Positions 28 through 58,218 of a DNA stretch of 64,000 bases are shown here, one piece after another. Position 1 is the first letter of the stretch. The number at the start of each line of letters is the position of its first letter. The stretch spans positions 930,001-994,000 of the forward strand of contig CM120646.1 of NCBI GenBank assembly GCA_051362555.1, written 5' to 3'. Both the position numbers and the translations under genes were made by a program. The notes below the pieces were generated by a model. It was not told where the DNA came from, did no database searches, and saw nothing but the letters and a program-made list of their open reading frames with translations. Origin of the DNA: Lingula anatina (Eukaryota; Animalia; Brachiopoda).

Positions 28-68
<41 letters not shown>

Positions 69-374
69 CCATTCAAATCCATCACGTAAATTATTTCAGG
101 AAATTAGGAAATAAAGACAACCATTTAGGTACAGTTTTCCAGAAGTACTAAAGACACGGCCACTGAAAGTGCGTCAGTTTCTTAATTAAAGCGTTAATCA
201 TTTCTTAAGTCAGCCTTTAATTATATAGAGAGGAAAGATAAAGGAAGTGTGGTTTTCTCAAACCATACCCTTTCAATATCCGCTCGATCTCCATAAAGGA
301 TATATGATCTGTATTTGACCACTCTATTCCTTTGTACTCAAAGTTACAAGAATATGAATATGCCATGCCTTTAA

Positions 375-9821: not shown

Positions 9822-10088
9822 TATTGATGAATTTGACTTTATTTCAGAATCAAGTAACACTTCGTAAATTTATTGAAATATTTGCTGAGCATCGTTATGA
9901 CACAATTTCTATATTTATAAAGCTTTTTTCAATACAATGGCTAAATCAATTATTCTTTTACTTTTAGAAAAATGTTCAGAAAACTCAAGGTGCATCAGTT
10001 CCAACAATCGGAACGAAAACTTATAATTAGCGGCACCAAGTGATTACTGCGTAAAACTCTCAGGATCAACAAGACTCTGCTAGCAAAG

Positions 10089-11465
10089 ATGGCGGACATG
10101 CAAGAAAATCACACTGGAGTGGTCCACCTGATGGATCACGTGATGTCCCACAGCAACAACGATAACGACACGGACCAATACAAGCACTTCTACTTCATAG
10201 CGAGGCAAATCACGGGACTCTACGTGTTTCCAGTCCTGTGTACCTTTGGTATTATTGGGAGCATTCTAACCCTTGTGGTTCTCAGTCAAAAACCCATGAG
10301 GTCGTCAACAAACGTGTACCTCTCAGCCCTAGCCGTGTCAGATATGATTAAGTTAATCAATGACTTTCTGTACTTCATGACCGTCTTTCTGTACGTCACG
10401 TCGCCTGCCACGGGGCAAAAGATGTACGCCTATCTCTACCCGTTTTCACACTTCGTCTTTCAAATGTCTGTGTGTGTGTCTTCGTGGTTGCTGGTCTCCG
10501 TGGCTGTGGAGAGGTACGTGTTGGTGTGTCATGCCATGTGGGGTAAAACCATGTGTACCACGCAGAGAGCTACGGTGGTCAGTGTCGTCATTTACCTTGT
10601 CATGTCAGGAATCGCCATCCCATCCGCTCTCCGATATAAAACAGTCAAGGTGTTCGACAACTCCACGGGGATGTATCACTTAGACGTGGATCTTACGGAG
10701 TTGTGGAAAAATAAAGAATTTGTCACGGCGTACACGTGGATACAGAATCTGTTGCGCTCAGTGATACCGCTCTTTATTCTAGCCATCATGAACTTCCAAA
10801 TCATCCGCGCTATCAGAGCGACGCGGGCAAATAAGAAACGTTCTCAGCGGCACCGCATCACGGTGATGCTCCTCAGCGTAATTGTGCTGTTCTTGATGTG
10901 CGTCACTCCTGATGCAATCATGTCAACTGTGTTCGAGATCGGCTATCACGAGAACGAGAACTGCCTTGCCAAAGGGATACGTGAAATAACAGACACGTTG
11001 CTATGCGTCAACGCAGCTGTGAATATAATATTGTACAGTGCTTTCAATTCAAAATTTCGCAAATGTTTCTGCATTCTGTTCTGCAAGTGCTGCACGGATG
11101 AGAGAATGGACACGATGGTCAAGGAGGGCCTAAGCACCACGAACGTTCCGGCACGTTTGGCGGTGAACAGAGACGTACGTTACACGCGGTTGTTAGGAAC
11201 AAACGCCTCGTGCCCTGTATTCCTTAACGTGAGCTCTACTGCGACATTCCTTAAATGTGACTCACAAATAGCCCTGACGCCAATCAAGGAGGACTGGAAC
11301 GGGAACTGTGAGCAGAGGGGCACCACGGTGGTCCGGCCGGGACTGAGGAGGCACACGGTGGAACAGTTTCCGTGCACGGCATCCAGCGGCTCCGTGAACT
11401 CCCGGCGGGAATCCGGCTGTAGCAATGGGGTTGTGAAATTTTCAGTCGGTATAGAAGAAGAGTGA
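10089..11465 (+). CDS. Rhodopsin-like (class A) peptide GPCR, FMRFamide/sex-peptide-receptor-like; single coding exon
   Basis: 458-aa ORF with 7 hydrophobic helices, SSTNVYLSALAVSD (TM2), ERY after TM3, FLMCVTP (TM6), NAAVNIILY (TM7), helix 8 and a Cys-rich tail. Acceptor cttttag| at 9967 indicates an upstream non-coding exon. Confidence 0.93.
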   Translation: MADMQENHTGVVHLMDHVMSHSNNDNDTDQYKHFYFIARQITGLYVFPVLCTFGIIGSILTLVVLSQKPMRSSTNVYLSALAVSDMIKLINDFLYFMTVFLYVTSPATGQKMYAYLYPFSHFVFQMSVCVSSWLLVSVAVERYVLVCHAMWGKTMCTTQRATVVSVVIYLVMSGIAIPSALRYKTVKVFDNSTGMYHLDVDLTELWKNKEFVTAYTWIQNLLRSVIPLFILAIMNFQIIRAIRATRANKKRSQRHRITVMLLSVIVLFLMCVTPDAIMSTVFEIGYHENENCLAKGIREITDTLLCVNAAVNIILYSAFNSKFRKCFCILFCKCCTDERMDTMVKEGLSTTNVPARLAVNRDVRYTRLLGTNASCPVFLNVSSTATFLKCDSQIALTPIKEDWNGNCEQRGTTVVRPGLRRHTVEQFPCTASSGSVNSRRESGCSNGVVKFSVGIEEE

Positions 11466-17224: not shown

Positions 17225-18734
17225 GGCAATCAGTTGGCTTTTGTGGAAAAAAAACTGCCTATTCATGCATCTGTAGGGTGGGAAAATTTGCAAACTATAG
17301 TTCATGGTGAAAAATAGGTCAAAGGTCAATTTCAAAGTAAAAGTTTCCCAGTATATAACTTCCTATTCAAGATCAATAGCAACTATTGCCAGTTTTGGAG
17401 ATATAAGGGAGGGATTTTTTTTTAGTGCAGTTCATTATGAAAAGTAGGTCACAGATCAATTTGAAGGTCAGAGTTAGACTGCCAGTGAAAAGAAGGTCAA
17501 AGGCTAATTTCCAAGTTACAGTAAGACCCCATTTCCACAGATTATAAATCGATCTATCCCCATGGGGAGTCTCACTAGATTACTGTCAGCATAGCTGGCT
17601 TAAATGCCTGTCCTGCCTACTAAAAGCTGTAAGGGAATAATTAAATTCCGTGTGCGGTCGGCTAACTGCAGGGAGTTAGGTCGATCAAGTAAGATCGATC
17701 TTAATCTCTGGGAATGCGCTCTAAGATTGTCAGTATATCACTTCCTATTCAAGTTCAATGGTAACTATGGGTGTATCTCTGCTAGTTTTGATGATATAAT
17801 TAAGGACCAGAAAACTTGCAAAGTGAAGTTCATCATGAAAAGTAGGTCAAAGGTCAATATCAAGGTCACAGTTAGATTGCTAGTTAATGACTTTCTATTC
17901 AAATTCTATGGGCGTATCTCTGCTAATTTTGGGAGTGTTATTTCATTTTATGTTAACTACTGAATATTGCATTGTTGTACTATTTAATAAAGTGCAACTC
18001 CTAAACCGTATGGAAAATAAGAAAATGGACACCACCTCCAGTATTGTGCTTGACAAGCTGTACTAAATGCAAAAAACAAGACGTCTCTAGTGTAAACAGT
18101 TCCACAATTACAGAGTTTTTAGTTTTGGCATCAAATGACTGCTTCTCCGGTGAAAATGCACCGATTGACCCCAAACCCATGAAGATGAAGGGAGTCCCTA
18201 AATAGTAGTCCCCACTGTAATATGAAAGCTTAGGTCTGTGTAGTTTCTGAAAATTGGCACAAACAATTCTTTTTTTGCAGAAAATTCCCATTTTTAGAAA
18301 ATTTTGGCCTGTTTGACCTTGAAATAAAGGTCAAATGTCAAATCCAAGGGCATATTTGGAAACTCCATATATGACTTTTGGTCAGACCTCAATAGTAACT
18401 TTTTCCATAATTCCTTCAGTTTGGGAGATATTTAGCATCAAATTTTCAAAAATTTTGACAAGGGTGCATTTCAGTGAGCGTCACACCCAGACCAATGCAC
18501 TAACTGAGACAAAAATACCAGGGGGTTCAAGTTGAGATTATATGTGACCTAAATCCAAGAGATGGGGACACAGGTCCCTGCGGTCTAGGAGGAGAAGCGG
18601 TAACGGTGACTTGTTTCCGGCGCCCGACTGCGGAGCCGCAGGAGCCGGCGGAGCCGCAGGAGCCGGCGGAGCTGTACGAGACGGGCCGGGACTAAAACCA
18701 TGAGTACCGCCAGCGTATACGCTGGTGGTACTAA
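16343..18734 (-). mobile_element. Helentron-associated non-autonomous element (HINE), copy 1
   Basis: 5' subTIR/hairpin GTACCACCAGCGTATACGCTGGCGGTAC, GC-rich minisatellite, internal degenerate tandem repeats, 3' subTIR with palindrome GAGGCGGTATCGCCTC and a CTAGTT end. Homologous to 61839-63709. Confidence 0.8.
17525..17721. mobile_element. MITE family C nested in HINE copy 1
   Basis: TAA TSD; removing it restores the HINE repeat unit (acagtaagattgtcagtat). Confidence 0.75.
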
Positions 18735-20111
18735 TTAATCTGAAAAATCCTTACATATTATCTTCTTATCCATGATGAAATTAATGAGTATTAGGTTAAA
18801 CAATTAATAAAATATTCCAATTTTCATAACAGTTCTTCATTTAATATAAAAAGGCAGCTGAGCTAAGTACATTATAAAGAAAATGCATAGAGAAACTTGA
18901 TATTTATCTACTCGCATAAATATAATGACAATTATTTAAATTTCAGACATACATGCATAGAACATGCTTTTTAAGTAATGTCTTCAGCTTTAGAAGCTAA
19001 ATGTTTCACTTGACATAAAATCTAGACAGAGAACTTTTACAAAACAAAATAATTATTAAGACAGTATTTGATAACATTTGTTTTGATTCCACCAAATTTG
19101 CACAATTTTAGGAACATTTTTTCCTATTTTTGATATCTAATATCTACACACAATATTTTGAAGACAGATTCTCTAAAACTTTTGGAGACAAGATTTATAA
19201 AATAAATAAGCATAGCTGCTTAAGTGTACTCTATACCTATTCGTATATGTCCACAAGTCACTTTTTAATTTCTAAACATTCTGCAAAGCTCTTCCTCTTT
19301 CCAAAATTCAGACCTTGAAAATACTAAAACCCCTTACATTATTGACTCAGTACAGTGTGTGCTTTGTGAAACATAAAGAAGACAAATGGCGACCTAAATG
19401 AATCACAAATTTATGTAGAACACATTTATTGATTAAAATAAGAAAACATTCAATCAAGTGCAAGAATGGGTCCAGCAATTATTTGTGAGTGCATTAAAAT
19501 TGCTCTTTTTTGCCTGATGAAAATTTGGTGCAAAAAAAAAAAAAACTTAAGCCATAAACTATAACCTTAAACTTTACTATAATCTCAAGTCATAAACTAT
19601 AGAATATTGTAAACAGATAATATGTAAACTGAGGTCTGTGAACTACTGCTTTTCTTTCTGCTGAAAACATTTTATTTGATATGATAACACAGAATAATCT
19701 AATGCTAAAATAAATGATAAAAGAAAATGGTAGAGATATGCAATGGTACTGGAAAATAAATAAGTAAATAAATACATGTAACTGGTCTTTTTGAAGCACC
19801 TGAAGTTATCACTTAACTACAAAATAAATAAATAAATAAATAAATAAATGAACAGATGGAATTGATACCTCGTTTTCAAGCTTTTGATTTATGCAACCTT
19901 AACATGGTCAAAAATAAGATCGACTTATTGTGTATTAGTTTTTACTCCAGTATTTGTGACAGAGACTGCAAACTAACCTACCACCTTATATCATAAGTAG
20001 GGGTTCATTAAAAAATTAAGAAAATGCCACTGTCATACTATTTCATTTGCCAGACTTACAAAAGTCATCTTACACAAGTCATCTAACTGAAGTCATCTAA
20101 CAGAGGCCATC

Positions 20112-23100
20112 TCACATGAGCCCCACTGTCAGCTCAAATCTATCCACCACTGAGCTCCCTGTGAACGATGTGATCTTTGTCTGCGTCTCTTCCTCTACAG
20201 ACTCTAACAACGCTGGTGTGGACCCGTATCCCTCACTGTCTATACCATAACCGTATGGCTGGCGAAATATAGCCACTAGAGGGAGCTTGGGGCTGTCTGC
20301 TGAGCCATGACGAGCTGGTACCACAGTTGAGTACATGTTTGGAGAGAACTGGAAAATAAATTCACTTTTATCATCTTTGATGGATCTTCAATAAAGAAAA
20401 TGTACATAAGAAGTGAATTAATAATGTTTATGATATATAACCAGAAATTATCAAAAAAAGTTTCAAAATTGCTAAAACATTACGATGGACAAAACATATG
20501 GACCTCTAACTATAAATTCCCTGTTAGCTTGAAGATACTGCAGCAAGGATGACTGCCTCTAGTCCATATAAAAGTGGCAGGTAAGCTGACCCTCACAATT
20601 TATCAAGAGACCTGGCCCCCGTTTTACAAAAAAACTTAGGCCATGTTACCTGGCTAAGAACTTAATTACCAACGTAACATGGTCACATGTGCACATCTTA
20701 CCCTATCAGGACACAAGTTACAGCACCCTCATGAAAATCCTAATCAACTAATTGATTTATTTATTTATTTATTCAATTTTTGAGTGTGTGTGTATGTGTG
20801 TTAAATTGAGTCCTGGCCTATGAATGCCTCGACTTAAAATATCTTACCAATAAAATTTCAGACACGTTAACTCCGACAGGAACATCAACAGTCCATTGCA
20901 CAGCCTCAAATGAGCTCAGCGCCAGCACCACCTGCTTGCTAGAATTCCCCTCTCTGGTGATGTTCACCGTAATTCCCCTCATCTCCACACTGTTCTGCAT
21001 CTGGTGCAGTAGACTATTGCTCGTGTACGCCGCTAGGATGTGCACCTCGCGTGGACTGCTGGGCTGGAGGTTCAGACAGCTGTATACAGATTGGGTGGTT
21101 TTGAAGGTTGTTGTCGGGGGCGCTGCTACTCTAGACTGGTGAGGCAAGACATGACAACCTGGGATCTCAGCTAAAATAGTTCATTAATTCACTTTCATTA
21201 CTGCACTGGCTTTTATGAATAATAATCATAATAGTAATGATTATAATGATAATGATCATCATTTATTTATAAATATTTGAGTCGTTGTGCAATAAATGTT
21301 TTCTCAACTACCACAATATATCCATGTAAAGTCTGGCAGAGGTTTGAGTAGTCTGATTGCTTTTCTACCTGTATTTAAAAGATCTAAAAATTAACAAAAC
21401 TGCTAAGATTTGGACAAATGTCTCAGTCATGCTTCAATAAGACTTGGGGATTGACCTCAACTCTTGAATTGGCTGAAAGCATCTTGAGCGTAATCACAAA
21501 AACTGCTTCTTGGAGAATCTGATTTTTAAAACTGGCTATAACCAGATTAAAATGAAACTGCAATTAGAGATATGAAATCAACTTTTAGAAGCTATTTGAC
21601 AGCAGCTGCTTACGTAAACATGTGTAGGAATTGTACCCTTCCCCGTAGCATCTACAGTGACCTTTCACGCAGCAGGAGCCGTAGATAGCACCGCCCTCTG
21701 GTGTCTGGCACTGATTGGACGGACACTGGAATAGCCAGGATGTGGTCCCTGAAACGTATGATACTATGTACTGGAATGGCACATGACGGGATGTGATGAG
21801 ACATGACGTAGCTGTTGTAGTGCTAACACTCACTAATTCGGCAAAATGCTAAGAGTGTATTCAGAAGAGCAGACTAACAGATTGGCAGATCAAATATGGT
21901 GACCCACTAAAAAGCTGCTAATTTGTCTCTTAATTCTCGATTAGACACTGAATTTATTCCCTACGGGGATTTCTCAACAAACACTCAAGTGAGTCAGCCA
22001 TATTTTTATCTGCGGATCTGTTAGTCCGCTGTTCTGAATGAGCTCTAAAACTTCTTAAATTTGCTTTAAAAACTGGGTTCATTTCACTTGTTTTAGTCAA
22101 GTTGAAACCATTTGGAGAAGAAAGTGATGAATAAGTAGTGTTTTGGCTAAGCCCCAAAAATTGCTGAACTACCACAGTCAGCATTGCATAGGATAACATA
22201 CATAGTACTAAATCATAACACAAAGTAACATAAAATGACATAACATGATAGTAAAATTAGCATAGCATAGCATATTATAACAAAAAGTTGTTTAAAATGC
22301 AGAGTTCATGCAGTATATCAGTCAGTGTAATAGTCATCTACTGTATGTCAACCCTACATCAATAAAATATCTTTGATTCCTCAAAAATCAAAGGATTACA
22401 CATAATGCCTCATCTAACCCCAGGCTTAAGCCTCAACTTATTTTCTACAGCAAAGACCTCAGGCAACCTCCATTTCCTTCTACTACCAATTATATTGACA
22501 TTTTTTTCATGGAGAAAACAAATGAGCATAATGACAAGGCCATGCCCTAGTCCCATCATTTCCTGGGGGTTTATTCCCGCCTTACCATTTGACTGGTCTG
22601 GCGCCGTGTAATTTTCGTTGCAAATCACAGTTTGATCTGAAATGCATTCAATCAATAATTATTGTCATCAAATAAGCTCTGATGTCGAAATTCTAAGCTC
22701 CCAGTTTTTATTTTAGAATAGAAATTGAACCATTTGCAAAAATTGCTCTCTTTATTGTCTACTTTAATTTACTAGTGTACTAGTACTTTTATGTATGATG
22801 CCTGTGTTGAACTCAATGCTAAAACTCCTATCACAGGGTTTAAATGACCATTATCAATAAAATGAAGGGGAAACATCTTAAATAAAATTAAATTCTGTAC
22901 ATAAGATCATAAAATTCTTTAAACTTTTTTGTCTGAGAATGAGATGACAACACTTGGTGTTGGGAGTATCTGATTTGTATCTGCCATTAATACAAGTGTC
23001 CCAACTACCAAATTTATTATCAACTTCTGTGAAAGAAACATCAAAACTATACTTACTTCCAAAAAAATATTTTTCCTAAAATAAATAAAAAACAAAATTA

Positions 23101-24651
23101 TATTCAATTTGATAAATCAAGCAGTTAAATTGAAAAATACATGTCAATATCAGTTTTATTTGTTCCTTTTGATGGCATGACTCTGAGTAATAAAAAATTC
23201 AGGAAATAAACCTGAAAATAAATATTTGGCGTTTATTTGATGAACCAGAAATGCCAACAACAGTTATCCTATCACCACACAGTTATCATATCCACAGCAG
23301 ATCTTAATCCAGCCAACACCTAACACAAATCTCTCACAGTTTTATGCAAACACAACTGCCATGTACATCTTGAAATTATCAACACACTATTTTCATCTAT
23401 CATTTGGGATTGTTTGAAAAATTGTCCTGTGTTTGATGTTGATATAGCTTTCATTCAGAACGTGACAAATGATACTTTTCACGCCTTCCTCACTTCCAGA
23501 AATGAAGTTATTACGTACACAACAATCCTTCATGTTTCAATGTGCGCTACTTATGATATTGATCGCGCTGAAGCCACTTTTTAATGCATCCGATTCATGC
23601 ACTGTGACAATGAGCTATGACGTCAGCATTACCAGTGTTACTTATCTCTATAATCTGACAACAATATTTACAATAAAGTTTTTGATCACAGACTTGGATG
23701 TTATGACAGTGCTGAGGTAGAGAGATCAAACACAATGGGTGTAATCCCCCCCCCCTTCCCCCAACTGCCTCTGGTTGTTTAGGGAGTTAAACCTTGGAAC
23801 CAGTTAGTTTTACTGTCAAACTGAAAAATTTCTAGCTCTAACTTCCATTTTTTCAAATTGCATCACAAAAACCTTTTCTTCAGGGCAATTTACATGATAA
23901 ATACTGAATCAATTTTGACTAAGTAACGCTCAAAAGCCATATCGTGTACAAATATGATCACACATTCATTCCACTTTGGTGCTTCTTCACTTTATTTGAC
24001 AATTGCAAATTGTCCATCCTCCTAAGGCAGACCTCAAAAAACATCCAAAATACATTTATATATCTTCATTCAAACTACAAAGACTGGAAGTACTCATCAC
24101 CAATAAAATAACTGTACGAGTACTCATCAATGTTGAGCACAAGACAGTAGATTGGAGCGCCTATGAATGTAAATCACATGTAATGCCTAATAAAGCTATT
24201 CCAAACAAGAATCAATGTCCTATCATAAAAGACATATAATAGCCCCATTATTGATCACCTCCTTACAGTAAATATCTCCCTCTGCCAACAGTCGATGTCT
24301 AAGAAAAAGGGAAAAGTGCACCTGTCAAGTAGCCAAGATTTCTAATCACCTTAGCCTGCCCCTCTGAGCCTGTAGGAGTCAGGCAAGGTGCTCTTTGAGA
24401 TCTCCAGTATTGATTGGGTTTAATTCACATGTCGATTGCAATACGTGTGATTGTGTAGAAGAGGCAGGAGGGTAGAATGGGGGAGGGAGAGAGAGAGAAG
24501 GGGGGTTGGAGGGGGAGAGAAAAGGAGGGGAGAAGAAGGGAGGGGAAAAGAGAGAAATGGAGAGAGGGGGGAGAAACAGATGGAAAGAGAGAGAAAGATA
24601 AAGAGATAGAGGAAAGACGGCAGGGAGAGAGATAGAGGCAGAGAAGGGAAA

Positions 24652-24690
<39 letters not shown>

Positions 24691-26400
24691 ACAGGGGGAG
24701 GGGAGGACTGAAAATGCCAAAAATCCCTCTAAAATTTCCAGACATCTGACAGGTTAATTGTTGATGTGAAGATGTAGCAGTTGGTGGTAAAAGGGGTAGG
24801 GATGGAAAGAGAGAGACAGTGCTAAAAGTAGCATACTGGCATATGTACTTCTCTAACACCCTGCCCAAAAAAAAAATCCATTGCCCCCCTAACCAAAATC
24901 AAAGCTTATTTCATTCCCTTCTTTGCTTGCTCTGAGGATTTGACAACTACCTCTAAAAAAAGAACCAATCCTTAAAATTTAGCTAATATATCTGTTAAAC
25001 ATATTTAAAAATAAATAAATTGTGTTATTTGTGTATATTGACCACATTTACAAAGAGTCGCCATTAAATGTTTACCCACATATCACTATTGTCTAGCCTA
25101 ATAGTCTTTTTTCTTACAATGAGGTAAAAAGGAATTTCAGGAAACAATGCCTAAAAAAATTAATATATAAATAAAATAAAATAATAATAAAAACAACACA
25201 CTAACTTTCATAAAAAGAGCAACCAGGAATATACTACCAACACTTAAACTGCATATCTTTGAAACAAACTAATGCGGTTTGTAATCCCATAAGAATAAAT
25301 CGATCAATACGACATTAAAAAAGGATGCACATACTCTATCAAAGGCTTCATTGCAGCAACCAAGAGGCAGTAATCTAATCCCATTAGAACAACAGGAAAC
25401 TGAGCGCCAAGTTACATTAAGCCGTTGTTTTATTTAATCCGTGAACAATGAAGTCACTTTACGTGAGACGTTCACAGAATTTAGTGGCAGTAATTGTGTT
25501 TGCGACAAAGATTTGTGTTTAATGACCGTATGATCCAGAGAATGAAGAGTTAGAGATACACATAACGGAGATGAAAAGATAACTGACATCAAAATATCCA
25601 GGCCATTCATTTTGTGTAGTAAATGGTGGTTCATTTCTATGCCTACTGGAATCAAGCACAATTTTTCTTTGATATATTTTTTTGCGCATATTGATATTCT
25701 TTGTCGTGCTTAAAAATGGATCTGCTATGAGAAACAATAACACTATTTCAGTAATCCATGCTCCACTAAAAAGAATTCAAACCAAAACATATTGAACAAA
25801 ACCTATAAGTTAACAGGCAACCCCATCACAAATAATTTCCAGAGTAAGGCTCTATTTTCTAAATTCTATTTTCTATTCGCGGTATGTCTTATGATCACGG
25901 TCTGTGCCCTGAATATCCCGCAGCGTAATTACTGGCAGCGCGAGCCAGTTACTATAAGTTACTTTAAGTAACTGGCTCGCGCTGCCAGTTATTACGCCGC
26001 GGGATATTCAGGGCACAGACCATGATCATAAGATAGAGCAAGGAAAAAAACTTAAATTAACAATGAGCAAAATACCTAGATTAAGATGTCAGCATAACTT
26101 AAACTTACTACAACTTAAACAATATATCTGCTGATGGCTGCAACAGTCACATGCTAGTTCAGCCAAAGCAACCCACAATTTACAATGGAATAAAATTGTG
26201 CAGCATTCTTTAAGAAAAAAAATATATTAATTGTATTATCCAGATTGTGATGCTATTGTTTTTTTCCTCTTTGATGGGATATATGTACAGAGGAAGTGTT
26301 AAAAAAATGAAAAAAAAGCATGATGGGGAGGTGACATGACAATGGATGTCCCTTCAACAAATCACAGGATCTCCTCTCACACAATAAACAACAACAATAT

Positions 26401-26432
<32 letters not shown>

Positions 26433-26956
26433 AATAATCATTAATCAAGCATCAATGCAACTGAAAATTTATCAAATAAATTTAATTCATTGAATCAAAA
26501 ATTTTATAATGTGATCTTAAACAAATAAAATTAATTTTAAAAAAGGGAAAAAATCACTACAGTACTGTATTTAATATTTCCTTTTCTCACCTTTGTTCCT
26601 TGTGAGGTGTCTCTCCAAACAGCAAAATACATAACAACACAAACAACCCCTGCCAAAACTCCAGCAGCAATTATAACACCAACAATAGCATGACATATTT
26701 TTTCTTCCTTCGATAACTCGGAGGAGGATGAGTCCGTTTTAATACTCCATGTGTCCGCGAGCTGAAGGTCACTGGCCCCAAGGTCACCCGGAAGGTCAGA
26801 TATCGCCACCCCGTCCGCTTCTCGGTGGACACTGTTATCGTGATCCCGCATGTACGGATAGGGGTATTTTCTAGCACCGCCATTTTGAATGGGTTTGTAC
26901 ATTTCTTCCTCTCCCTGGTCTCCGTCTGTAAAACTCGGGTTGCTGTATTCCATCAT
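20112..26956 (-). CDS. Type II single-pass membrane protein (~360 aa): cytoplasmic tail, TM, EGF-like module, betaglycan/endoglin-orphan-like domain
   Basis: Exons (minus) 26956-26591, 21770-21614, 21170-20848, 20348-20112 are all GT-AG and phase-compatible (0,1,0), 1083 nt in total. TM AIVGVIIAAGVLAGVVCVVMYFAVW. EGF-like CPSNQC...CCVKGHCRCYGEGYNSYTCLP. The exon-2 acceptor is uncertain (alternative at 21748) and extra small exons are possible. Confidence 0.8.
21853..22045. mobile_element. MITE family B copy
   Basis: Inverted termini gagtgtattcagaa/ttctgaatgagctc; TAA TSD. Confidence 0.75.
24457..24707. repeat. ~250-nt almost purine-only low-complexity tract
   Basis: G/A-rich plus strand with G-runs and GA repeats, inside intron 1 of the type II membrane protein gene. 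Confidence 0.85.
25850..26035. mobile_element. MITE family A, internal palindromic portion
   Basis: gatcacggtctgtgccctgaatatcccgc...gcgggatattcagggcacagaccatgatc inverted repeat shared with 777-968. Confidence 0.7.
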
Positions 26957-29555
26957 GTTTGAGCAAGTTCTGGTTCAATCTGTAACATATCATAGAATAA
27001 GAAGTTATTATTACAATTATTACTCTAATTATATAGCAGTTTTTCTTGGTCTCTCCTTATTATCCAAAACATTCTGTTTAAAACCTACTCTAAAAATTGA
27101 AATAATAATCAATTCACTACAATCATGTAGTTTTTTTTCATATTACTGGTCTTTGTGTCAAAATCTAAATTGATGAACAAACAAATCAAGATTAATATTA
27201 ATGGTTAAACAAATAGCTCAGACATTAATGGAATCTCATTCATATAAAATGAACCTGCACAGCATAAACACTAATAAGGTATTAATGCATACAAATTTAT
27301 TCCATTTGACTAAAAAACATACAGGTATAACATACATGGAAAACAGACCTGACTTCCTAACATTCTTTTATACAAACCCAAACAGTTACTGTTGTCATCA
27401 GTCTGCTGTTCAACACACCAAGCTCACCTATTAACTCCTCATCACTTGCTAATGTGTCAGTGCATGCATAGTTCTACTTATATATATGTCAGGTCAGAGG
27501 TCAAATAATAGAATACGTCAAAGCTGTCTGGAAGGTTTTGTTTACTCACATTTACTATCAAAATGTTGAAGCCTAAAGCAACTGCACAATGCAATTTCAG
27601 ACATGTTAGTATATAAAGGCAACGTGTATATTTCAAAGTCCATCATCAAAACTGCTGTAGCAGTCATGTGCCCCTCAAAAAACAAAAAAAAAAAAGTTTT
27701 AACAGTGGCATTAAAATATTCAGTCACAGGGTGACAGTTTTATATCTATCCAGTTACACGCAATTTTCAGTTGCTATTCATTCCATGCCAAGTCCAATAC
27801 AGAGAAATAAGCTAGATGTGTTTTTCTGCCTATGACGAACTGACCTATCTCTGTAAGAAGACCCTGTTATATAAAAATAGCCAGGATGTTGAGATGGCAA
27901 TCTCTAAAAGTGTATCAATCCAGTTTAAAGTATCCCTCTAAGTTAAAAAGCCTTGCTGAGTGGTTTGGACCCTCAACACAGGACCTAAACACTGTGTGTA
28001 ATCAACAAATTCATCTTGGCTTCTTTACATTCACCTGCTTCATATCTATATATACCAATATAAACAGACACTTTGCTTGTGTTAGATATATTAAATTTGT
28101 GCCAAAAGCTGGCCATATTTTGCTTCCTCCTGCTTTAGAGAAAATTAATATTTTTTAACTGATATTTTTTTAATCGATAGGTGAAATGTTTGTTTTATTA
28201 ATCAAAACAAAAAATCAAGACAAAAATGGTGCAGCCATAATGTTAAACTGATGTAATAAAATATAAAAATCATCTCTGGATGTACTAGATTTAATGCCTC
28301 ATCACCTGAACAAATCATCTACCTCTGACATTTTAACAATTCACAAGTATTACCTGCAGATAGTCCTGCTGTGGAACTTCCTAATATTCTCAGAAATACA
28401 CATATTAAATGTTCCTACATGTACAATAAAACACAAATCAAAGAAATCAGCACTCGTTTCACAAAAAAAAATATATTTCACTGACCTTTGCCTGTAGAAG
28501 CGTCTAATGCTAAACGCCCAGGTTTTGTGGAGATGAGTATTTGCTTTTCATTATTCTGGACATAAACATCACAAACTACCCCGCTAACCAAGCACATCGC
28601 ACTGATGAAGTTCTACACACACTGTTTGCTCTACACGCTTGTTCCTGATTCATGAAGTGGCACTAGTATCCAATGAATTATATATGAAGCCATAATGATA
28701 GCTTTAATACCTCAGGTCAATATGAGATAGGGAAACCTAACCCCTGTTTTGTCCACCAAGAGGGTACCAGTCCATCCAACTCCGCCTGGACAATTGTGTC
28801 CAGATCAATTAAGTGGCTAATTATGGGAGTAACGAGGTGATAAATGAACCGCTGCATCATTGATGAGTATGTGGGGAAACAGGTGGATGGATAAAATACG
28901 GTAATGACTAATGAAGTTTAAACACTTAATTTTCACCAGTATTTCTCTCAAAAGGACTGCCACATAGTATTTTACTTCTCTGTGGCATTTTTCTGTCTGT
29001 AAGACTTTCTGAAAATTCTCCTACCAATGAATTTAATAATTAAAACTTTTACAGGGTTAGAAAGTGGTGCACCATTCATTTTTCTTTTTTTTTCATGGTT
29101 TATGAAAGTACAAACAAGTTTTCTTGAGGGGAAAAAGATTTTTCAGAGAGGAGGAAACACAGTGGAATGGGCCATTATGTTCTCTCTACAGACCCTTTAA
29201 GACCTCTAATTAGGTTACTAGTAACTTGTTGGACTGCTCTAAGGAACCTCACTGAAGCTCTGCCAGTGAAATCCCTGGTTAATGAGTCTGGATATATATA
29301 TGTACTAGTACTGAGGCACACACAGGATGCATATCTCCAGATCACTTCTAAAAACTTCTTTTTGGAACCATTATCAGTTACTCTCTGACCACAGCCTGGG
29401 TATGCTGGTAGTCTGTTACAACATTTACTGTTTCGCACCCTGTGAGATTTCATGTAATCAACGGGGAAAGCAATCCTGGCCAGATATATGTTTTGTATTC
29501 GTCAGTGGGGGGTGACTTCACGCGTAGATGTTGAGTAGCATACATTTCTGTCTAT

Positions 29556-29863: not shown

Positions 29864-31654
29864 CAGAGCATCAGAGCATCAGAAGTTTATTGACTATCGC
29901 CCTACATCCGGGCATGATCAAATACAAATACAAGAAGTAATCCGCAGAGTGATTACCATATACAGTTTGATATACATTATATAATGTCTAGACTAAAGCA
30001 GGGAAAGTACATGTACTACTCAATAAAGATCAATATAGGGATAATTAAAAAAAAAAAAAAAAACTGATTCAACTAGAATAGGCTACACTAAACCTTATAT
30101 TAAACTAACTATTATTTAGGGGGATATGAAAACTGCATCATCAGTTAATCTAGGTTTTATTCAGCATGGATGCAATTTTCATATCCCTAGCTTTAAAACA
30201 ATCATAAAGAAAATTAGTTGTGCATTTTGCAATATCAAAATCATTACATTGCAGTACAGTAATAAAAAGGTCACTGATGGACTCAGGGGCTGCACTGCCC
30301 AGTATATCTTTAACCTGGTTAAGGAATATGGCTCTTAGTGGAGCATAAGAGGGGCATATCATCATAAAATGGAACTCATCTTCAACTGACCCCATGTTGC
30401 ACACCGTGCATAGCCTTTTCTCTATGGGTATTTTAGGATTCATGTGTCTCCCCTTTTCAATTGCCAAATTGTGGGCACTTATCCTGAATTTGCAAAGGAA
30501 TGTAGATTTGGGTTTGTGGATTAACTGTGTGTATATTTCTCTTTTAAAATCTTTTTTGAAGGTACTGTAGGTACGTAATTTTTTGCCCTCCGTGTTCAGG
30601 GATGCTAGGTGAGATTTAAAGGCCGAACTATAAGAGATTTGGATAAGCGGTTTTATTATGGAAGAGAGTGCGGTCATGGATATTTTAAAAGGGTCCTCCC
30701 AAATGTCAGGGCGTCCAATGAGCGCCAGTGTATTTTTAATGCCGGTTGACCAGGTTGAGGTGTTAAGTCTGTTTAAATTTTCATTTTCATGAAGTGCATG
30801 AGTAACTAAGGAGGTGGTGTCATGGTGCTTTTTATATTGGAGGCTGTGCCAGTATTTGAGGGCCAGTGTGTGGGCAGTGGTCAGTATTGGGAAGCTGCCC
30901 AGTTCTCCGCGGACAGCATGTGAGGGAGATTTTCGGTTAACGCCTAGGATAGTTTTGCAGGCCTTGAGATGTAAGGTTTCAATGGAAAGTTTGTCACAAA
31001 TTAGGAAGTAGCTGTCTTTACTTGAGTTTTTGACAAAGTATGGTGCCCAAACTTCAGAGCCATAGGTAAGAATGGGAGCTATGAGTGAGTCAAAAAGTTT
31101 CATGGAAATGGGCACTGGGCTGGTGAATAATTTATTGCGGATTTTGAAAAATGCTTTCCCCCCTTTTGATTTGAGTATTTCAAGGGATTTGGTGAAACTT
31201 CCGGATGGAGTAAAGACAAGTCCTAAATAGCAGTATTCACTACAGATTTCTAGAGGTATATCGCCAAACTTGAAAATTTGTTTCTGGATTTTGTGGCCAG
31301 ATTTATTGAATATCATGACTTTTGTTTTAGTGATGTTCACTAGTAGCTTCCATTTTTTGCAGTAGGCCTGAAGTTGATTTATTGCGGTTTGTAAACCTGC
31401 ACTGCTTTCCGACATAATTACTAGATCGTCTGCATATAATAGGCAATTTAATTTTTGATTATTCAGAGACACTGGGTCACATCTGTCGTTAAAAATTGAG
31501 GGCAGGTCACTTATGAAGAGATTAAAGAGGAGTGGACTGAGATTACAGCCTTGCTTAACACCAACAGAGGACGAGAGACTATTTGTTATGCTATTTCTGC
31601 ATTTGACGGCAAAACGCACAGATGAGTACATATTACGAAGGGTTCTTAGAAAGA
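29864..31654 (-). mobile_element. 5'-truncated non-LTR retrotransposon (RTE-X-like LINE)
   Basis: ORF 31631-30150 has RT motifs GVKQGCNLSPLLF, LLYADD and YLG, plus C-terminal FRISAHNLAIEKGR...CTVC...EDEFHF...C (CCHC). The 3' UTR ends in AATAAA (29891-29886) followed by a (TCTGATGC)n tail. Confidence 0.9.
30150..31631 (-). CDS. Reverse transcriptase C-terminal half plus CCHC zinc knuckle (LINE ORF2 fragment)
   Basis: 493-aa uninterrupted ORF with the YADD catalytic motif; endonuclease and N-terminal RT are missing. Confidence 0.88.
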   Translation of the reverse strand: MYSSVRFAVKCRNSITNSLSSSVGVKQGCNLSPLLFNLFISDLPSIFNDRCDPVSLNNQKLNCLLYADDLVIMSESSAGLQTAINQLQAYCKKWKLLVNITKTKVMIFNKSGHKIQKQIFKFGDIPLEICSEYCYLGLVFTPSGSFTKSLEILKSKGGKAFFKIRNKLFTSPVPISMKLFDSLIAPILTYGSEVWAPYFVKNSSKDSYFLICDKLSIETLHLKACKTILGVNRKSPSHAVRGELGSFPILTTAHTLALKYWHSLQYKKHHDTTSLVTHALHENENLNRLNTSTWSTGIKNTLALIGRPDIWEDPFKISMTALSSIIKPLIQISYSSAFKSHLASLNTEGKKLRTYSTFKKDFKREIYTQLIHKPKSTFLCKFRISAHNLAIEKGRHMNPKIPIEKRLCTVCNMGSVEDEFHFMMICPSYAPLRAIFLNQVKDILGSAAPESISDLFITVLQCNDFDIAKCTTNFLYDCFKARDMKIASMLNKT

Positions 31655-32221
31655 CTAGACATCTGAATTAGGTTTTTCCCCACAGGGAACTATACTAGTA
31701 CTAGTACTTAGATTCTGTATGCCATTTTGGAAGCCCTTAATGTAAGAGAGTAAACATCAGTTTGGTCTTTACAGTGAAAATATTTAACCTACGTCATCTC
31801 ACTTTCTGCTAATTATCTAGCACCTATAAAAATATCACACACATCACTTCAATATTTAACTATTCTTTCTTCCTACATTGTCCTATCTGTTTGCTATTTG
31901 TTTCATTTTAACAGTGTGTATCTCGCACCCCCTCCCATCTCTTTCCAGTTACAAGACCTCCAAAAATATTATGCAACAACTTGATAACACCATCAGGATG
32001 TTAAGTGCGTGTACACATGCATTTTTGGAGATCCTCACTCAGGTCTCGGCATCTCAGCACTGCGCAGCATCCAGGTGATCTATTATATATAAATACAGCA
32101 CTAAAAGGCTGTTAAATACCAGCAGTCTGTGTATTAAGACATGATGTATTGATTGAAAACAGTGGTTGGTGTGATTAGCTTTGAGATAGCACTCATAAGT
32201 TGCACATGTGAGATATTTCAC

Positions 32222-37239: not shown

Positions 37240-38185
37240 GCTTGCATCTTGAATGTTCAGCGTTAGCTACTGTATAGAAAGGTGTCACGTTTTTAGTGTA
37301 CCAGCAGATCGTACATTAGTTTATCACGGCAGCAAAGTCCACACCCTCGATACAAATCTATTAATAGACCAAAAGTGCTGGAAAACCTATCAACCACGTG
37401 TCGTGTTAATAACAAAAATGAAGCTTTTTTTTAGAAGTACACAACTCGATACCATACTTTTTTCTGTGCTATGCATTACTTTTTTGTATGGAAATAAATA
37501 AAAATAGTGAGGGTTTTTTTCTATTACGCCCCTTGAGTGTGCTATATATGGGAGTAGGTATGCAGTGGGAGTAAACAGATTTCGCAATAGCTCAAGATAT
37601 ACAATAACAATAAAAGTTTTGCAGAATTAATGTGGCAATATTTTGTTGATTATTCAGGGTATATCGGGCTCCAGCAATATGTCCAGCAGAAGAGGCAGAG
37701 CAACTGGGAGACAAAATAGCCTTCCCACCTACCAACAGGCCTGCGCTCTGTTGAGAATCTCAAAGAAAAATGTTCCTGGAAGTGAGGAAGAAAATATCGA
37801 ACAAGATCTTTATCGGCAGATGAGTCATCTCCCCCGCCAGCAGCCGACAGCGCCATGTTTTACAGAGGACGAAGGCTGCACATCAGTGTCGTCTGCTGAA
37901 AGATGTTTGGAGCCATTGTCGTCTGCGAACCACATCCCTGGAAAGAAGCACAGACGAGTTAGATTTTTGAGAGCCCGCAGTCGAGACTTTACGGCTTCCA
38001 CGTCCTCGGAAAACCAACTTCTCTCAGAAGCATCCCCCGTTTTGCGTGACACGCCGAGCACAGGGCGCCCGCCGAAGAGAAAGGGACTTTTGAAAAGACT
38101 TCGCCCAAAGTATATTTTCAAAGTGTGTGGCGTTGTTTTTGGTGTTGTTCTTATTGGTGCTCTGTTGTTGGTATTCCTGGTATGA
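37112..38185 (+). CDS. Small tail-anchored membrane protein with LPxY, PTAP and RVxF motifs (paralog 1)
   Basis: Candidate exon 37112-37162 (MPSFGARYVLPTIALQQ|gtaaat) splices in frame to 37658-38185; an alternative start is ATG 37679. Disordered body, basic KRKGLLKRLRPK segment, C-terminal 20-aa hydrophobic helix, then stop. AATAAA at 38578 is followed by a GT-rich element. Confidence 0.7.
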
Positions 38186-38993: not shown

Positions 38994-39218
38994 GACTGGG
39001 TTCCCATAGATTATCTATCCGGATCGACCTAACTCCTTGGGGGTTCACGCTAAATTATTGTCAGTTTCCGAGAGCCGAGCGCGCACAAAAGTTAATTACC
39101 CCCTTACAGCTTTTAGTAGGCGGGACAGACATTTAAACCTGTCAGGCTGACAACAATCTATAGCTAGTGAGACTCCCCAAGGGGATAGATCGATCTAAAA
39201 ATCTATGGGAATGCAGTC
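38994..39218. mobile_element. MITE family C copy abutting the stop codon of paralog 2
   Basis: gactgggttcccatag...ctatgggaatgcagtc with TAA TSD. A degenerate equivalent follows paralog 3 at ~43970-44116. Confidence 0.78.
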
Positions 39219-39628
39219 TAAGACGATCTCGATAATGACAACCATCCAGCCTGTCGCTCCGCCAGTCTTAACGGTCGGGAAATAAAACGCTTAAAATGAC
39301 TACGTTTTCGTTTTAAAGTAAAATTGTCAGGTGAGTCTACAAGATCACCAAAGTTCTCTGGAAATTCTGAGTCATTATTTCTGCTCCTCTCCCGGTCTTT
39401 TGGCGGCGATTTCTCGGAAGATTTTGGAAGGGGCGAAGGGCAGGCTCTTTCATATCGCAGATGATCTTGAAAATGACCAAAGTGTTTTAACCCGACATCG
39501 ACTTCATGATCCCTAGGCAGAGCTGACTGTAGCAGACGACAGTTAATACGCTGATCATAGCTTAGCGGCGGACTTTGTCTGCCTGAAATATTTGGGTGTG
39601 GCACGCTCATTTGGTTGACCACGGACAT
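39218..39628 (-). pseudogene. Degenerate inverted paralog (paralog 2) of the 43529 gene; motifs mutated and TM lost
   Basis: Same ttacag|AAA ATG start as the 43529 gene. Shares HPNISGR, NCRLL, GHFQD, RNNDSE and KRKR..FKR.ISRPLRL, but PPSY became PLSY and PSAP became QSAL, and indels after SRPLRL remove the TM. May still be expressed as a 136-aa soluble protein. Confidence 0.65.
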
Positions 39629-40660
39629 TTTCTGTAAAACGGAAAGATTTACATGACAAGTAAAAACGATGACAACCCACTTTCGTAGAACTGACACGTA
39701 AGTTGAGATGACGGGCGAAACGTAAAATGTTTTGTGGTGAAAAATGCCCATAATATACTTCATAGGCTATCTGATAAACTATTAACCTCCTTTTGTTGTA
39801 AGTTGTAAAATGGCCTCCACTGCAGTTCTCAAGTTTCATGGACAAGCACTATATAATGCCGGAATCCCGATACCTATCACTCAGGCACATGCATCCACGT
39901 GCACGTGCGCACGCGTTTATATACACCCACCCCCACCTCATCAACAACGAAAACAAACAACGATAATATTAAAGAGTTTTATCACTCTTTAGAAGGCTAT
40001 CTTTCTATTATTTGTTTTATCAAAGCTAACCTTTGATAAGTCAGTGGTGAAGTCCGCCAGTCGAATGCTGTTTTCTCCTCTTTCTAAAGCTGTATGTCAA
40101 CGATATGATCTTCTCGATATCACTTTGGTGATAAAGGCTCCGTTCACATGAAAAGTCTATTTTCTAAAAATCTATTTTCTATTCGCGGTATCTTGTGATC
40201 ACGGTCTGTGCCCTTAATACCCCGCGGCGTAATTACTGGCAGCGCGAGCCATGGCCAGTTACTTCCAAAGCTGTAATTAATTCTCGGCTGCGCTCGGAGT
40301 GATCACAAGCTGAGAAGACCCTGCTTATTGGAAAATTGCTGAAAATCAGGGGATTTTCTTTTCAGTTTGGAACATTTGGTAGTTTTTGTCTTTGAGAGAA
40401 AGAGAGTGACGGCGCTTTTGATGACAATTATAATTGTAAAGTTTTAATGAAAGAATACAATTATGACACAGGAAGCAGATTTTTTTGTAGCGATGACGAA
40501 AATAAAAACATAACAAGAAAACAAGTTTGAGTGTCGCACTTTGAATGAATTAAAAAGCATTGAGGAGACAGTAGAAGTATTCATATAAATTATGTGCGAA
40601 TAATCCCCCCTCTATGCCTTTAAGATTTTTTTCGTTTTTCAGCGTTTCTGGGCCGGACGA

Positions 40661-42780: not shown

Positions 42781-43528
42781 TATGATAAAAAAAAATTGAT
42801 GGTAGAATAACCTTATACAGAGTTTCATAACCCTTTAATGTTTTTTGTAGTTGTTATATTTGTTGCTGATGGTGGTGGTGTACATGTATGTGAGCGTGTG
42901 TGCATGTATTTGTATTAGTAGAGTATATCAATATGTCTTTACAATTCTGTAAAATTCGTAAGATATTCTGACAGAAATGTTGACAAAACTTGCTAATATA
43001 CCACAAAAGGCTAGGAGAACTATTTAACATCCATTCTCAAGAAGATAAAATGATACCCCAATAATGTCTATCGCTAATTGCTTTTTTAAAAAGCGGCAAA
43101 TAGACTATAGTGTCACGCCAGTAAGGTCCTTAAGTCAGCCTAAACGTATACTTTGAAAGTGAAAGAGAGCGATGAATCACGTTTTGCACCAGTTATCAAC
43201 AACATGGCCCATATAACAACTGTTCTCAGACTGACAATTACACACAAGTAGTTTTTTAAAAAGTTGTTTGCAAATGTTAAAAAAAAAGAATGAGTAGTAT
43301 AATGTAATGAACGTTACTTGGTAGCTGGATATACTTCTAATGTACTAGAGATCACTTTAAAATGTACTATAAAAGAGGATGATTACTCAATAGTTAATGA
43401 AATTATGGGAATTTTACCCATTTTTCACAAAAAAAAAAATGAATTAAAGTCTTAAATTCGCCCGACCATCAAAATGGACTATATCCTGTTTTACTAACTA
43501 TTTATTTCATTTTCATTTATTACAGAAA

Positions 43529-43966
43529 ATGTCCGCGTTCGACCAAATGAGCGAGCTACACCCAAATATTTCAGGCAGACGAAGCCCTCCGCCAAGCTAT
43601 GATGAGAGTTTTAACTGTCGTCTGCTTCCGTCAGCTCCGCCTGTGGAAGATGAAAGCGATGTCGGATTAGAACACACGGGCCATTTTCAAGATCGGCTGC
43701 AATACCAGAGAAGTTGCTATTCACCTTTGTCAGCATCTTCCAGTAATTCATCGTCAAAACATCGGGGAAGACACAGAAATAATGACTCAGAATCTTCAGA
43801 GAATGCTCTTTTGAATTCAAATAATTCAAATGAAAACTGTTCTTCAAAAAGAAAACGTGGTCTTTTCAAGCGAATTATTTCCCGGCCGTTAAGACTGATA
43901 CAGGCTGGGGGAGTGAGCACTGGCATTATTATCGCCGTCGTGGTCATATTAGTCATGGTTCTCTAA
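43529..43966 (+). CDS. Small tail-anchored membrane protein with PPSY and PSAP motifs (paralog 3)
   Basis: 145-aa ORF after a strong acceptor (tttcatttattacag| at 43525). PPSY at 43589, PSAP at 43628, basic KRKRGLFKRIISR segment, C-terminal TM GIIIAVVVILVMVL*. Confidence 0.75.
   Translation: MSAFDQMSELHPNISGRRSPPPSYDESFNCRLLPSAPPVEDESDVGLEHTGHFQDRLQYQRSCYSPLSASSSNSSSKHRGRHRNNDSESSENALLNSNNSNENCSSKRKRGLFKRIISRPLRLIQAGGVSTGIIIAVVVILVMVL

Positions 43967-49578: not shown

Positions 49579-58218
<8,640 letters not shown>

Follow-up and report, generated by a model that had tools for sequence, protein, structure and literature searches.

Does the orphan domain of the TGF-beta type III co-receptors betaglycan (TGFBR3) and endoglin have free-standing relatives, and what might such a relative say about how the vertebrate domain was assembled? 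The question is raised by a 64,000-nt stretch of the Lingula anatina genome (the window; GCA_051362555.1, contig CM120646.1, positions 930,001 to 994,000), in which an earlier note had described a gene for a type II membrane protein ending in a single orphan-like domain. RNA reads and translation show that this minus-strand gene is spliced and expressed, with six coding exons and one stop, and that it encodes 376 residues which, but for three, are those of the RefSeq record XP_023930218.1 (P0050, “uncharacterized protein LOC106157584”, Lingula anatina). What it encodes is a true, and apparently unannotated, single-copy relative of the orphan domain; it belongs to a broad, shuffled family and falls outside that of the TGF-beta type III co-receptors.

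Homology and Predicted Fold of the C-Terminal Domain

Relatives were collected by phmmer, using the 107-aa exon that encodes the first part of the domain as query against 1.84 billion representative proteins (E<=1e-3). Forty-nine matches were obtained, 47 of which also match a domain profile built largely from them, a test that is circular for the seed rows; the other two (P0001 and P0039), having no match to the profile, were set aside as artefacts of repeats. Neither the exon nor residues 148-376 of XP_023930218.1 retrieved anything in word-index protein searches, and an alignment query returned seven matches.

Compared with the sequences of the PDB, a profile of 27 exon-sized relatives matched the four TGFBR3 entries at E=2.1e-7 to 2.4e-6 over half of the domain, with the next entry at 0.039. 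A fuller profile of 38 rows raised this to 3.9e-11 to 5.3e-9 (next 1.8) and aligned with the cores of both TGFBR3 subdomains, from the Cys or the EVH strand through the last strand, and a third family profile gave 2.3e-9 to 2.7e-5 (next 0.078). The profile termed A3 was uninformative in this comparison, being dominated by the trypsin domains of its amphioxus rows. Endoglin had no sequence-level match when the family profiles were run against the PDB sequences. The human TGFBR3 motifs that the earlier note had cited (CASRG...EVHVL, KSVVFLLNSPHPLVWHL and LLNWARKEYGAVTSFT) do occur in PDB 7lbg_D, where they align with the family profile, and the motifs it had quoted from the window are present there.

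An AlphaFold2 model was built on a 39-row alignment, in which the N-terminal part is misaligned so that the model there is meaningless (predicted local distance difference test, pLDDT, <50 for residues 1-148). Over most of residues 151-376 the pLDDT is 76-93, and in two loops it drops to 55 and 59. The predicted domain, as assigned by DSSP, consists of strands within residues 219-326, a helix at 342-353 and strands at 359-373, giving a parallel beta-helix-like core with a single alpha helix. A Foldseek search with this model placed ten betaglycan and endoglin chains first among 500 (E of 3.6e-7 to 3.2e-4; next 0.27). In a VIA-align search of 48,161 chains, only three reached Z>=5: 6mzn_A (Z 17.0; root-mean-square deviation, rmsd, 2.7; 157 residues aligned at 22% identity), 7lbg_D (Z 12.6; rmsd 2.3; 129 residues) and 5i04_A (Z 11.4; rmsd 2.5; 125 residues), with the next chain at Z 3.8. 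The profile match, the Foldseek ranking and the top VIA-align score all bear out the proposed homology to the betaglycan/endoglin orphan fold, which we regard as close to certain.

The domain has no family model in the Pfam and NCBIfam sets searched: XP_023930218.1 is without a Pfam match at E<=10, and its NCBIfam match is at the transmembrane level only (0.054). Newer Pfam/InterPro releases may hold an entry for the TGFBR3 N-terminal region. The ESM Atlas likewise gave no usable feature match and a poor model (predicted template modelling score of 0.20).

Two cysteines lie in the N-terminal part of the domain. Among non-redundant animal-type copies that cover the sites, Cys196 is kept in 35/35 and Cys222 in 38/38; they lie 26 residues apart in Lingula, and in all 15 copies examined the second invariant Cys stands 23-30 residues upstream of Cys222. 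In endoglin, the corresponding spacings are 23 (C30-C53) and 25 (C182-C207; PMC5464963). A Cys196-Cys222 disulfide is inferred from this pattern.

Gene Structure and Expression

Seven of nine raw-read RNA runs filed under the same species label were used, and four of them (X1-X3 and X9) were mapped over 19000-24400. Reads span the joints 20348/20848, 21170/21614, 21747/22585 and 22636/23057 in each of these four runs (28/57/53/27 in X1, 23/65/28/19 in X2, 13/49/49/24 in X3 and 3/7/11/7 in X9, in that order), while X4 covers one of the four joints, with two reads, and X7 and X8 have 0-14 reads per joint. All four introns are GT-AG, that at 21747/22585 when read one base over. First mates lie on the plus strand in X1-X3, the orientation that most stranded libraries give for minus-strand RNA. 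The majority of the reads match the window at 90-99%, and therefore the sampled animals differ from its haplotype.

These reads supply the splice check that had been proposed, and its outcome is mixed: four introns are seen directly, but the layout put forward in the earlier note, of four phase-compatible exons open in frame over 360 residues, is contradicted. That model needed the Cys-rich exon to start at 21770, whereas the RNA joint places the start at 21748, and it lacked the exons of 51 nt (22636-22586) and 19 nt (23075-23057), both of which are shown by reads. The exons are listed in Table 1. That at 20848..21170 contains the Cys196...Cys222 stretch, the EVH strand, a variable loop and the VVLALSSFEAVQW strand.

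Upstream, the joint between the transmembrane exon and the 19-nt exon (26591/23075) lay outside both read-mapped stretches and is placed by its phase (0), by the identical join in XP_023930218.1 and, weakly, by a joint side length of 21 (19 + 2). An in-frame stop lies 21 nt upstream of the ATG, inside the putative exon, whose acceptor AG ends at 26980. Downstream, the orphan-like domain is the end of the main product, because same-strand reads run past the stop to 19000 and, over 19000-24400, the cryptic donor at 20115 (GTGAGA) takes part in no joint. The likely 3' untranslated region contains AATAAA/ATTAAA signals at 19676, 19430 and 19269. XP_023930218.1 and our model share their last residue with another record, P0002 (129 aa). 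A further downstream exon reached from the donor at 20115 was considered and rejected: there is no such joint within 19000-24400 or among those listed for 17300-24400, and neither tblastn nor exon scans found a downstream orphan-like exon. A minor form spliced farther out from this donor may exist. A candidate exon near 24277-24330, with almost no depth and no joint, was also rejected.

Protein Layout and Topology

The N-terminal tail (residues 1-87) is acidic, with 18 D/E and 8 K/R, and carries the tyrosine motifs YSNPSF (residues 4-9), YKPI and YPYM. It is followed by a single hydrophobic segment at residues 88-113, which holds the only 19-residue Kyte-Doolittle peak above 1.3 (maximum 2.91 at 90-91); the hydropathy scan of the 376-aa protein has no N-terminal peak. 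About 35 residues separate this segment from the Cys-rich module (154-189), and the orphan-like domain occupies residues 190-376. The N-terminal tail is likely to be cytosolic, and the protein a single-pass type II protein, because all six sequons and all ten cysteines outside the transmembrane segment are C-terminal of it, and none precede it. The type I layout of signal peptide and C-terminal transmembrane segment is not found, given the single segment at 88-113 and the in-frame stop upstream of the ATG. A type II layout, one copy of the domain and no ZP module had all been predicted, and the transmembrane, sequon and domain analyses uphold them. The described anatomy likewise holds for the YSNPSF tail, the single transmembrane segment and the C-terminal domain of ∼180 aa, but not for the “EGF-like” label, which is matched by no family model.

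The module given that label contains Cys154, 159, 171, 172, 177, 179 and 189, of which C172, C177, C179 and C189 are kept in 13/13 full animal copies. It is modelled at a pLDDT of about 78-88 with a predicted beta-hairpin at 170-179, and has a six-Cys consensus with a C-x-C. No EGF or EB match in Pfam was obtained for the exon (E<=1), for XP_023930218.1 and six relatives (E<=10) or for 48 phmmer matches (E<=0.01). One copy of the module, in P0048 (residues 462-485), has a weak Pfam Toxin_2 match (E=0.005, below the cut-off), which hints at a small disulfide fold of a kind other than EGF.

Distribution of the Family

The claim that similar domains occur in bacteria and other invertebrates is supported by the phmmer matches and by a scan of prokaryote genomes. 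Twenty proteins were looked up, and the named sources are Lingula, Gigantopelta (a gastropod), Holothuria, Ptychodera, Branchiostoma, Ephydatia (a sponge), the corals Desmophyllum and Oculina, and the myxobacterium Chondromyces; many other members are metagenome fragments. From 108 copies, 50 are non-redundant at <70% identity (40 animal-type and 10 bacterial-type). The Cys-rich module directly precedes the domain in 13/13 full animal copies. The two occur together one to four times per protein, beside Reeler, WAP, TARSH_C, Fz, Ig and trypsin domains, and MORN and esterase-like domains are further partners. To judge by these arrangements, module and domain together are a living and widely shuffled unit.

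The invertebrate relatives XP_041368724.1 (Gigantopelta), XP_070550008.1 (Ptychodera), XP_035673048.1 (Branchiostoma), KAJ8020054.1 (Holothuria), KAL5481285.1 (Ephydatia) and KAL9963215.1 (Oculina) resemble the Lingula protein in sequence (about 24-34% identity), in their cysteines and in an intron position. The shared intron is phase 0 and lies at the end of exon 20848..21170: a Val (GTN codon, an in-frame GT donor) follows the place where the Lingula exon ends in 25/26 exon-like fragments and in 0/9 spliced copies. The Gigantopelta protein is also a type II protein with tail and transmembrane segment, and has the unit at its C-terminus. Most of the others differ from Lingula in that they look secreted or carry two to four copies together with other domains, whereas in Lingula the unit stands alone and is the most diverged animal copy. 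In Branchiostoma, P0015 and P0054-P0058 are serine proteases of mosaic build, in which Frizzled, Ig and trypsin domains are combined with a single orphan-like unit or a pair of them. Ephydatia muelleri KAL5481285.1 (P0059) has an N-terminal hydrophobic stretch, a Reeler domain, two tandem Cys-rich/orphan-like units and a C-terminal transmembrane segment, and so resembles betaglycan in its type I, two-copy layout but differs from it in having no ZP match. No ZP match was obtained for the Lingula protein or for any relative scanned.

The prokaryote scan, made with the Chondromyces protein, yielded 159 candidate stretches and two loci, both in metagenome-assembled genomes of 74-75% GC (L001 and L002). 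At L001:3266-4393 (+) and L002:2777-4441 (+), Cys/Asp-rich repeats are followed by one C-terminal orphan-like domain. The predicted model of the L001 domain retrieves the same three chains in VIA-align (Z 11.4, 11.1 and 10.0; next 4.2; rmsd 2.2 over 112 residues for the top match), although its Foldseek E values are only 1.2e-3 to 2.2e-2. These domains and that of Chondromyces crocatus (WP_050434221.1) share the core motifs and the predicted core fold with Lingula, but have no Cys-rich module and form a separate group. In an unrooted tree of 23 cores, all of them animal or bacterial-type rows of the family outside betaglycan and endoglin, the two types split at 100/100. Residues common to both are H234, Y239, S277-Y/F278-E279 and S359-F360-x-G362, which in the predicted models sit in or at the ends of the core strands.

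Comparison with Betaglycan and Endoglin

Of the known structures, the closest comparison is with betaglycan OD1 (PDB 6MZN, 9B9F and 9FDY), which shares with Lingula a profile match over the whole core, the predicted fold, a Cys before the EVH strand, a conserved Trp, and a single helix followed by the TSF strand. Lingula has one copy of the domain rather than two intertwined subdomains; only one domain is present in XP_023930218.1, and tblastn found no second copy in the window. It also differs in having no OD2 insert and no ZP module, in its likely type II topology (type I in betaglycan) and in the Cys-rich module that precedes the domain, and neither the TGF-beta binding loop nor the OD1/OD2 junction is kept. 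Endoglin OR1/OR2 (PDB 5I04 and 5HZW) shares the predicted fold and a similar Cys-Cys spacing before the core, but without a sequence-level match, and again the ZP module is peculiar to the vertebrate protein.

PMC5464963 describes the orphan fold as a new fold without clear relatives, and endoglin OR2 as inserted after the first two strands of OR1, with disulfides C30-C207 and C53-C182; in the history proposed there, an OR2 ancestor was duplicated and then circularly permuted. Endoglin thus reads, in sequence order, as [Cys, two strands][Cys, core] twice, and family Cys222 aligns with the Cys that precedes each betaglycan core. When five full betaglycan orphan chains were aligned with the Lingula model (190-196..373-376), their whole span (30..359 in 6mzn) was covered at Z 16.2-17.2 and rmsd 2.7-3.0, yet with only 152-158 residues aligned; because of this, the Lingula domain is predicted to follow the path of OD1 (an N-terminal Cys hairpin, then the core) with OD2 skipped. 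If the free unit has the OD1 order, tandem duplication with swapped hairpins would be the simpler history for the vertebrate orphan region, and we favour it, with moderate confidence, over an OR2 ancestor with circular permutation. Such duplication has happened repeatedly, since for five of six animal proteins the tree places the tandem copies next to each other (support >=90). Related single copies are present from sponges to bacteria, and therefore the free single domain is likely to be the unit from which the vertebrate orphan domain was built. The suggestion that the Lingula domain is a relic of the ancestral form of the fold gains support as to the ancestral form, but not as to the relic, the unit being a living, shuffled module.

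Several observations weigh against this account or its details. The Lingula protein alone has no TGFBR3 match by phmmer, so that TGFBR3 is reached only through the family profile or the model, and VIA-align gives the first and last aligned residues only, so that the disulfide and the skipped OD2 insert are deductions. Among the bacterial domains, the N-terminal hairpin is not confidently modelled, and Chondromyces P0029 carries an extra Cys pair after the last core. Engineered OR1-only endoglin was not secreted (PMC5464963). The charge around the transmembrane segment, with three K/R on each side, does not decide the topology. Finally, Lingula has the longest branch (1.8) among the 14 animal copies and is without some family residues (the Glu after Y239 and the Tyr at 364), and it may have lost the family binding site.

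Possible Functions

For the Lingula protein, we put the chances at about even that it works at the cell surface as a capture receptor whose extracellular partner is not a TGF-beta ligand. The tail would face the cytosol, where its tyrosine motifs could recycle the protein by endocytosis, and the partner, perhaps a matrix protein or glycan, would be bound at the strand ends marked by the residues common to animals and bacteria. A tandem pair of such units, with the hairpins swapped, might have given rise to the vertebrate orphan region. An older and more general binding role of the domain is suggested by these common residues and by the partner domains of the relatives, which are extracellular and mixed.

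The proposal that the protein is a TGF-beta co-receptor finds no support, since there is no OD1/OD2 junction, the binding loop is variable and the core occurs in bacteria, and we rate as quite unlikely that the protein serves an invertebrate as co-receptor or scavenger of TGF-beta-family ligands (BMP, activin or ADMP), binding them through one orphan domain as endoglin OR1 does BMP9. In its favour, the fold is that of OD1/OR1, the subdomain with the main ligand contact in both vertebrate proteins, and the protein is membrane anchored. Lingula has BMP ligands and receptors (PMC13121700), and endoglin OR1 alone binds BMP9 via an edge strand (residues Q270, I271, S278 and F282; PMC5464963), so that binding by one domain is conceivable. 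An Asn-Ser also stands at the place of zebrafish betaglycan N245-S246 when counted from the EVH histidine, which may be chance. In betaglycan, however, OD1, OD2 and the linker between them make up an arc that holds TGF-beta, and F49A, L210A, L213A and F250A abolish binding (PMC11865472), whereas the Lingula protein has a single domain without the junction. The loop after the EVH strand, the main binding loop of betaglycan, is variable across the family and about six residues longer in Lingula, neither register puts a Phe where betaglycan has F250, and the topology is reversed, with no ZP match in the proteins scanned. The core is moreover shared with bacteria, which are not known to have a TGF-beta pathway. 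A bolder form of the proposal, that the protein is the undivided ancestral orphan unit in a type II brachiopod receptor already capturing a BMP/activin-type ligand with its single domain, is in our judgement decidedly unlikely.

Somewhat unlikely, though credible, is that in this gene the fold has been kept and the binding site lost, so that the domain caps or spaces a surface glycoprotein in a structural role, or that the protein works inside the secretory pathway. The long Lingula branch and the loss of several family-conserved residues fit this, as do the tyrosine-based sorting motifs, which can serve retention in endosomes or the Golgi as well as recycling; but all core residues and cysteines are kept, the reading frame is intact and splicing is clean in several runs. 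It seems extremely improbable that the transmembrane exon is transcribed separately from those downstream, in which case the domain would lie in a secreted protein and the type II layout would be an artefact of the model. The joint concerned is the one beyond the mapped reads, and the full-length relatives mostly show either a hydrophobic stretch at the N-terminus or no transmembrane segment; yet RefSeq joins the exons identically, the phases fit, the joint side length is that expected if the upstream exon ends in AG, and the gastropod relative P0025 also combines tail and transmembrane segment with the module at its C-terminus.

Other Features of the Window

The remaining features are given at the end of Table 1. 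The repeat-derived region is likely to be a dispersed transposon, and the 505-aa open reading frame (ORF) is presumably a fragment of a LINE (long interspersed nuclear element) reverse transcriptase. Both paralogous ORFs have PPSY/PLSY motifs and a basic stretch; that on the plus strand ends in a hydrophobic run and a stop, in the manner of a tail anchor, while that on the minus strand is without a hydrophobic end in the frame read. The related ORF at 37631-38185 ends at a possible GTATG donor and may be a first exon. None of these three has a Pfam match. The multi-exon gene on the minus strand resembles BZW/5MP.

Table 1. Positions of the exons of the orphan-domain gene and of other features in the window.
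Feature	Position	Strand	Remarks
Coding exon 1	26591..26956	-	Met1-Lys122, acidic tail and transmembrane segment; same in RefSeq model, outside the read-mapped stretches
Transmembrane segment	26618..26695	-	About residues 88-113, by hydropathy
19-nt micro-exon	23057..23075	-	Residues 123-129; joint 22636/23057, AG/GT ends
51-nt exon	22586..22636	-	Residues 129-146, stalk with Cys134 and N-glycosylation sequons; joints on both sides, phase 1-1
Cys-rich module exon	21614..21748	-	Residues 146-191; joints 21747/22585 and 21170/21614
Exon with first part of orphan-like domain	20848..21170	-	Residues 191-298; joints, 49 phmmer matches
Last coding exon	20112..20348	-	Residues 299-376 and stop; helix 342-353 and TSFTG strand completing the domain; joint 20348/20848
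Likely 3' untranslated region	19000..20111	-	Same-strand reads go on beyond the stop, with depth falling to about 1-17 per bin
Rhodopsin-family G protein-coupled receptor, single exon	10044-11465	+	7tm_1 E=1.1e-28, Srw E=9.7e-19; convergent with the studied gene
Repeat-derived region	17300-18950		Many partly fitting RNA reads, rearranged joints
505-aa ORF	30150-31667	-	YADD motif
Paralogous ORF	43448-43966	+	Local alignment score 381 with next row
Paralogous ORF	39218-39766	-	Local alignment score 381 with previous row
ORF with tail and hydrophobic end	37631-38185	+	Weaker match to ORF at 43448, score 97
Multi-exon gene	about 49986-55473	-	W2 domain E=4.5e-5 on one exon

Relation to Previous Work and Significance

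No paper on free invertebrate or bacterial orphan domains, or on this locus, was found in the full-text literature covered; two papers by Kim et al. from 2019, outside that coverage, reportedly concern the betaglycan orphan domain and may discuss its evolution. In the 2026 paper on the Lingula BMP pathway (PMC13121700), the terms betaglycan, endoglin, TGFBR3 and co-receptor appear nowhere in the main text or in three supplementary files, and further tables may exist. What is new here is a free domain predicted to have the OD1 order without the OD2 insert.

With a family of free-standing domains spread over sponges, corals, molluscs, brachiopods, deuterostomes and bacteria, the orphan fold acquires a pedigree, and the model of an OR2 ancestor and circular permutation becomes testable. 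The members are small, natural single-domain scaffolds on which the divergence of the betaglycan and endoglin ligand sites can be studied, and the unannotated module merits a family model. If a single domain did capture BMP/activin-type ligands in a brachiopod, growth-factor binding would predate both the duplication and the ZP fusion, and TGF-beta signalling would have taken up a fold of bacterial age early in animal history. The main value of the finding is evolutionary and structural.

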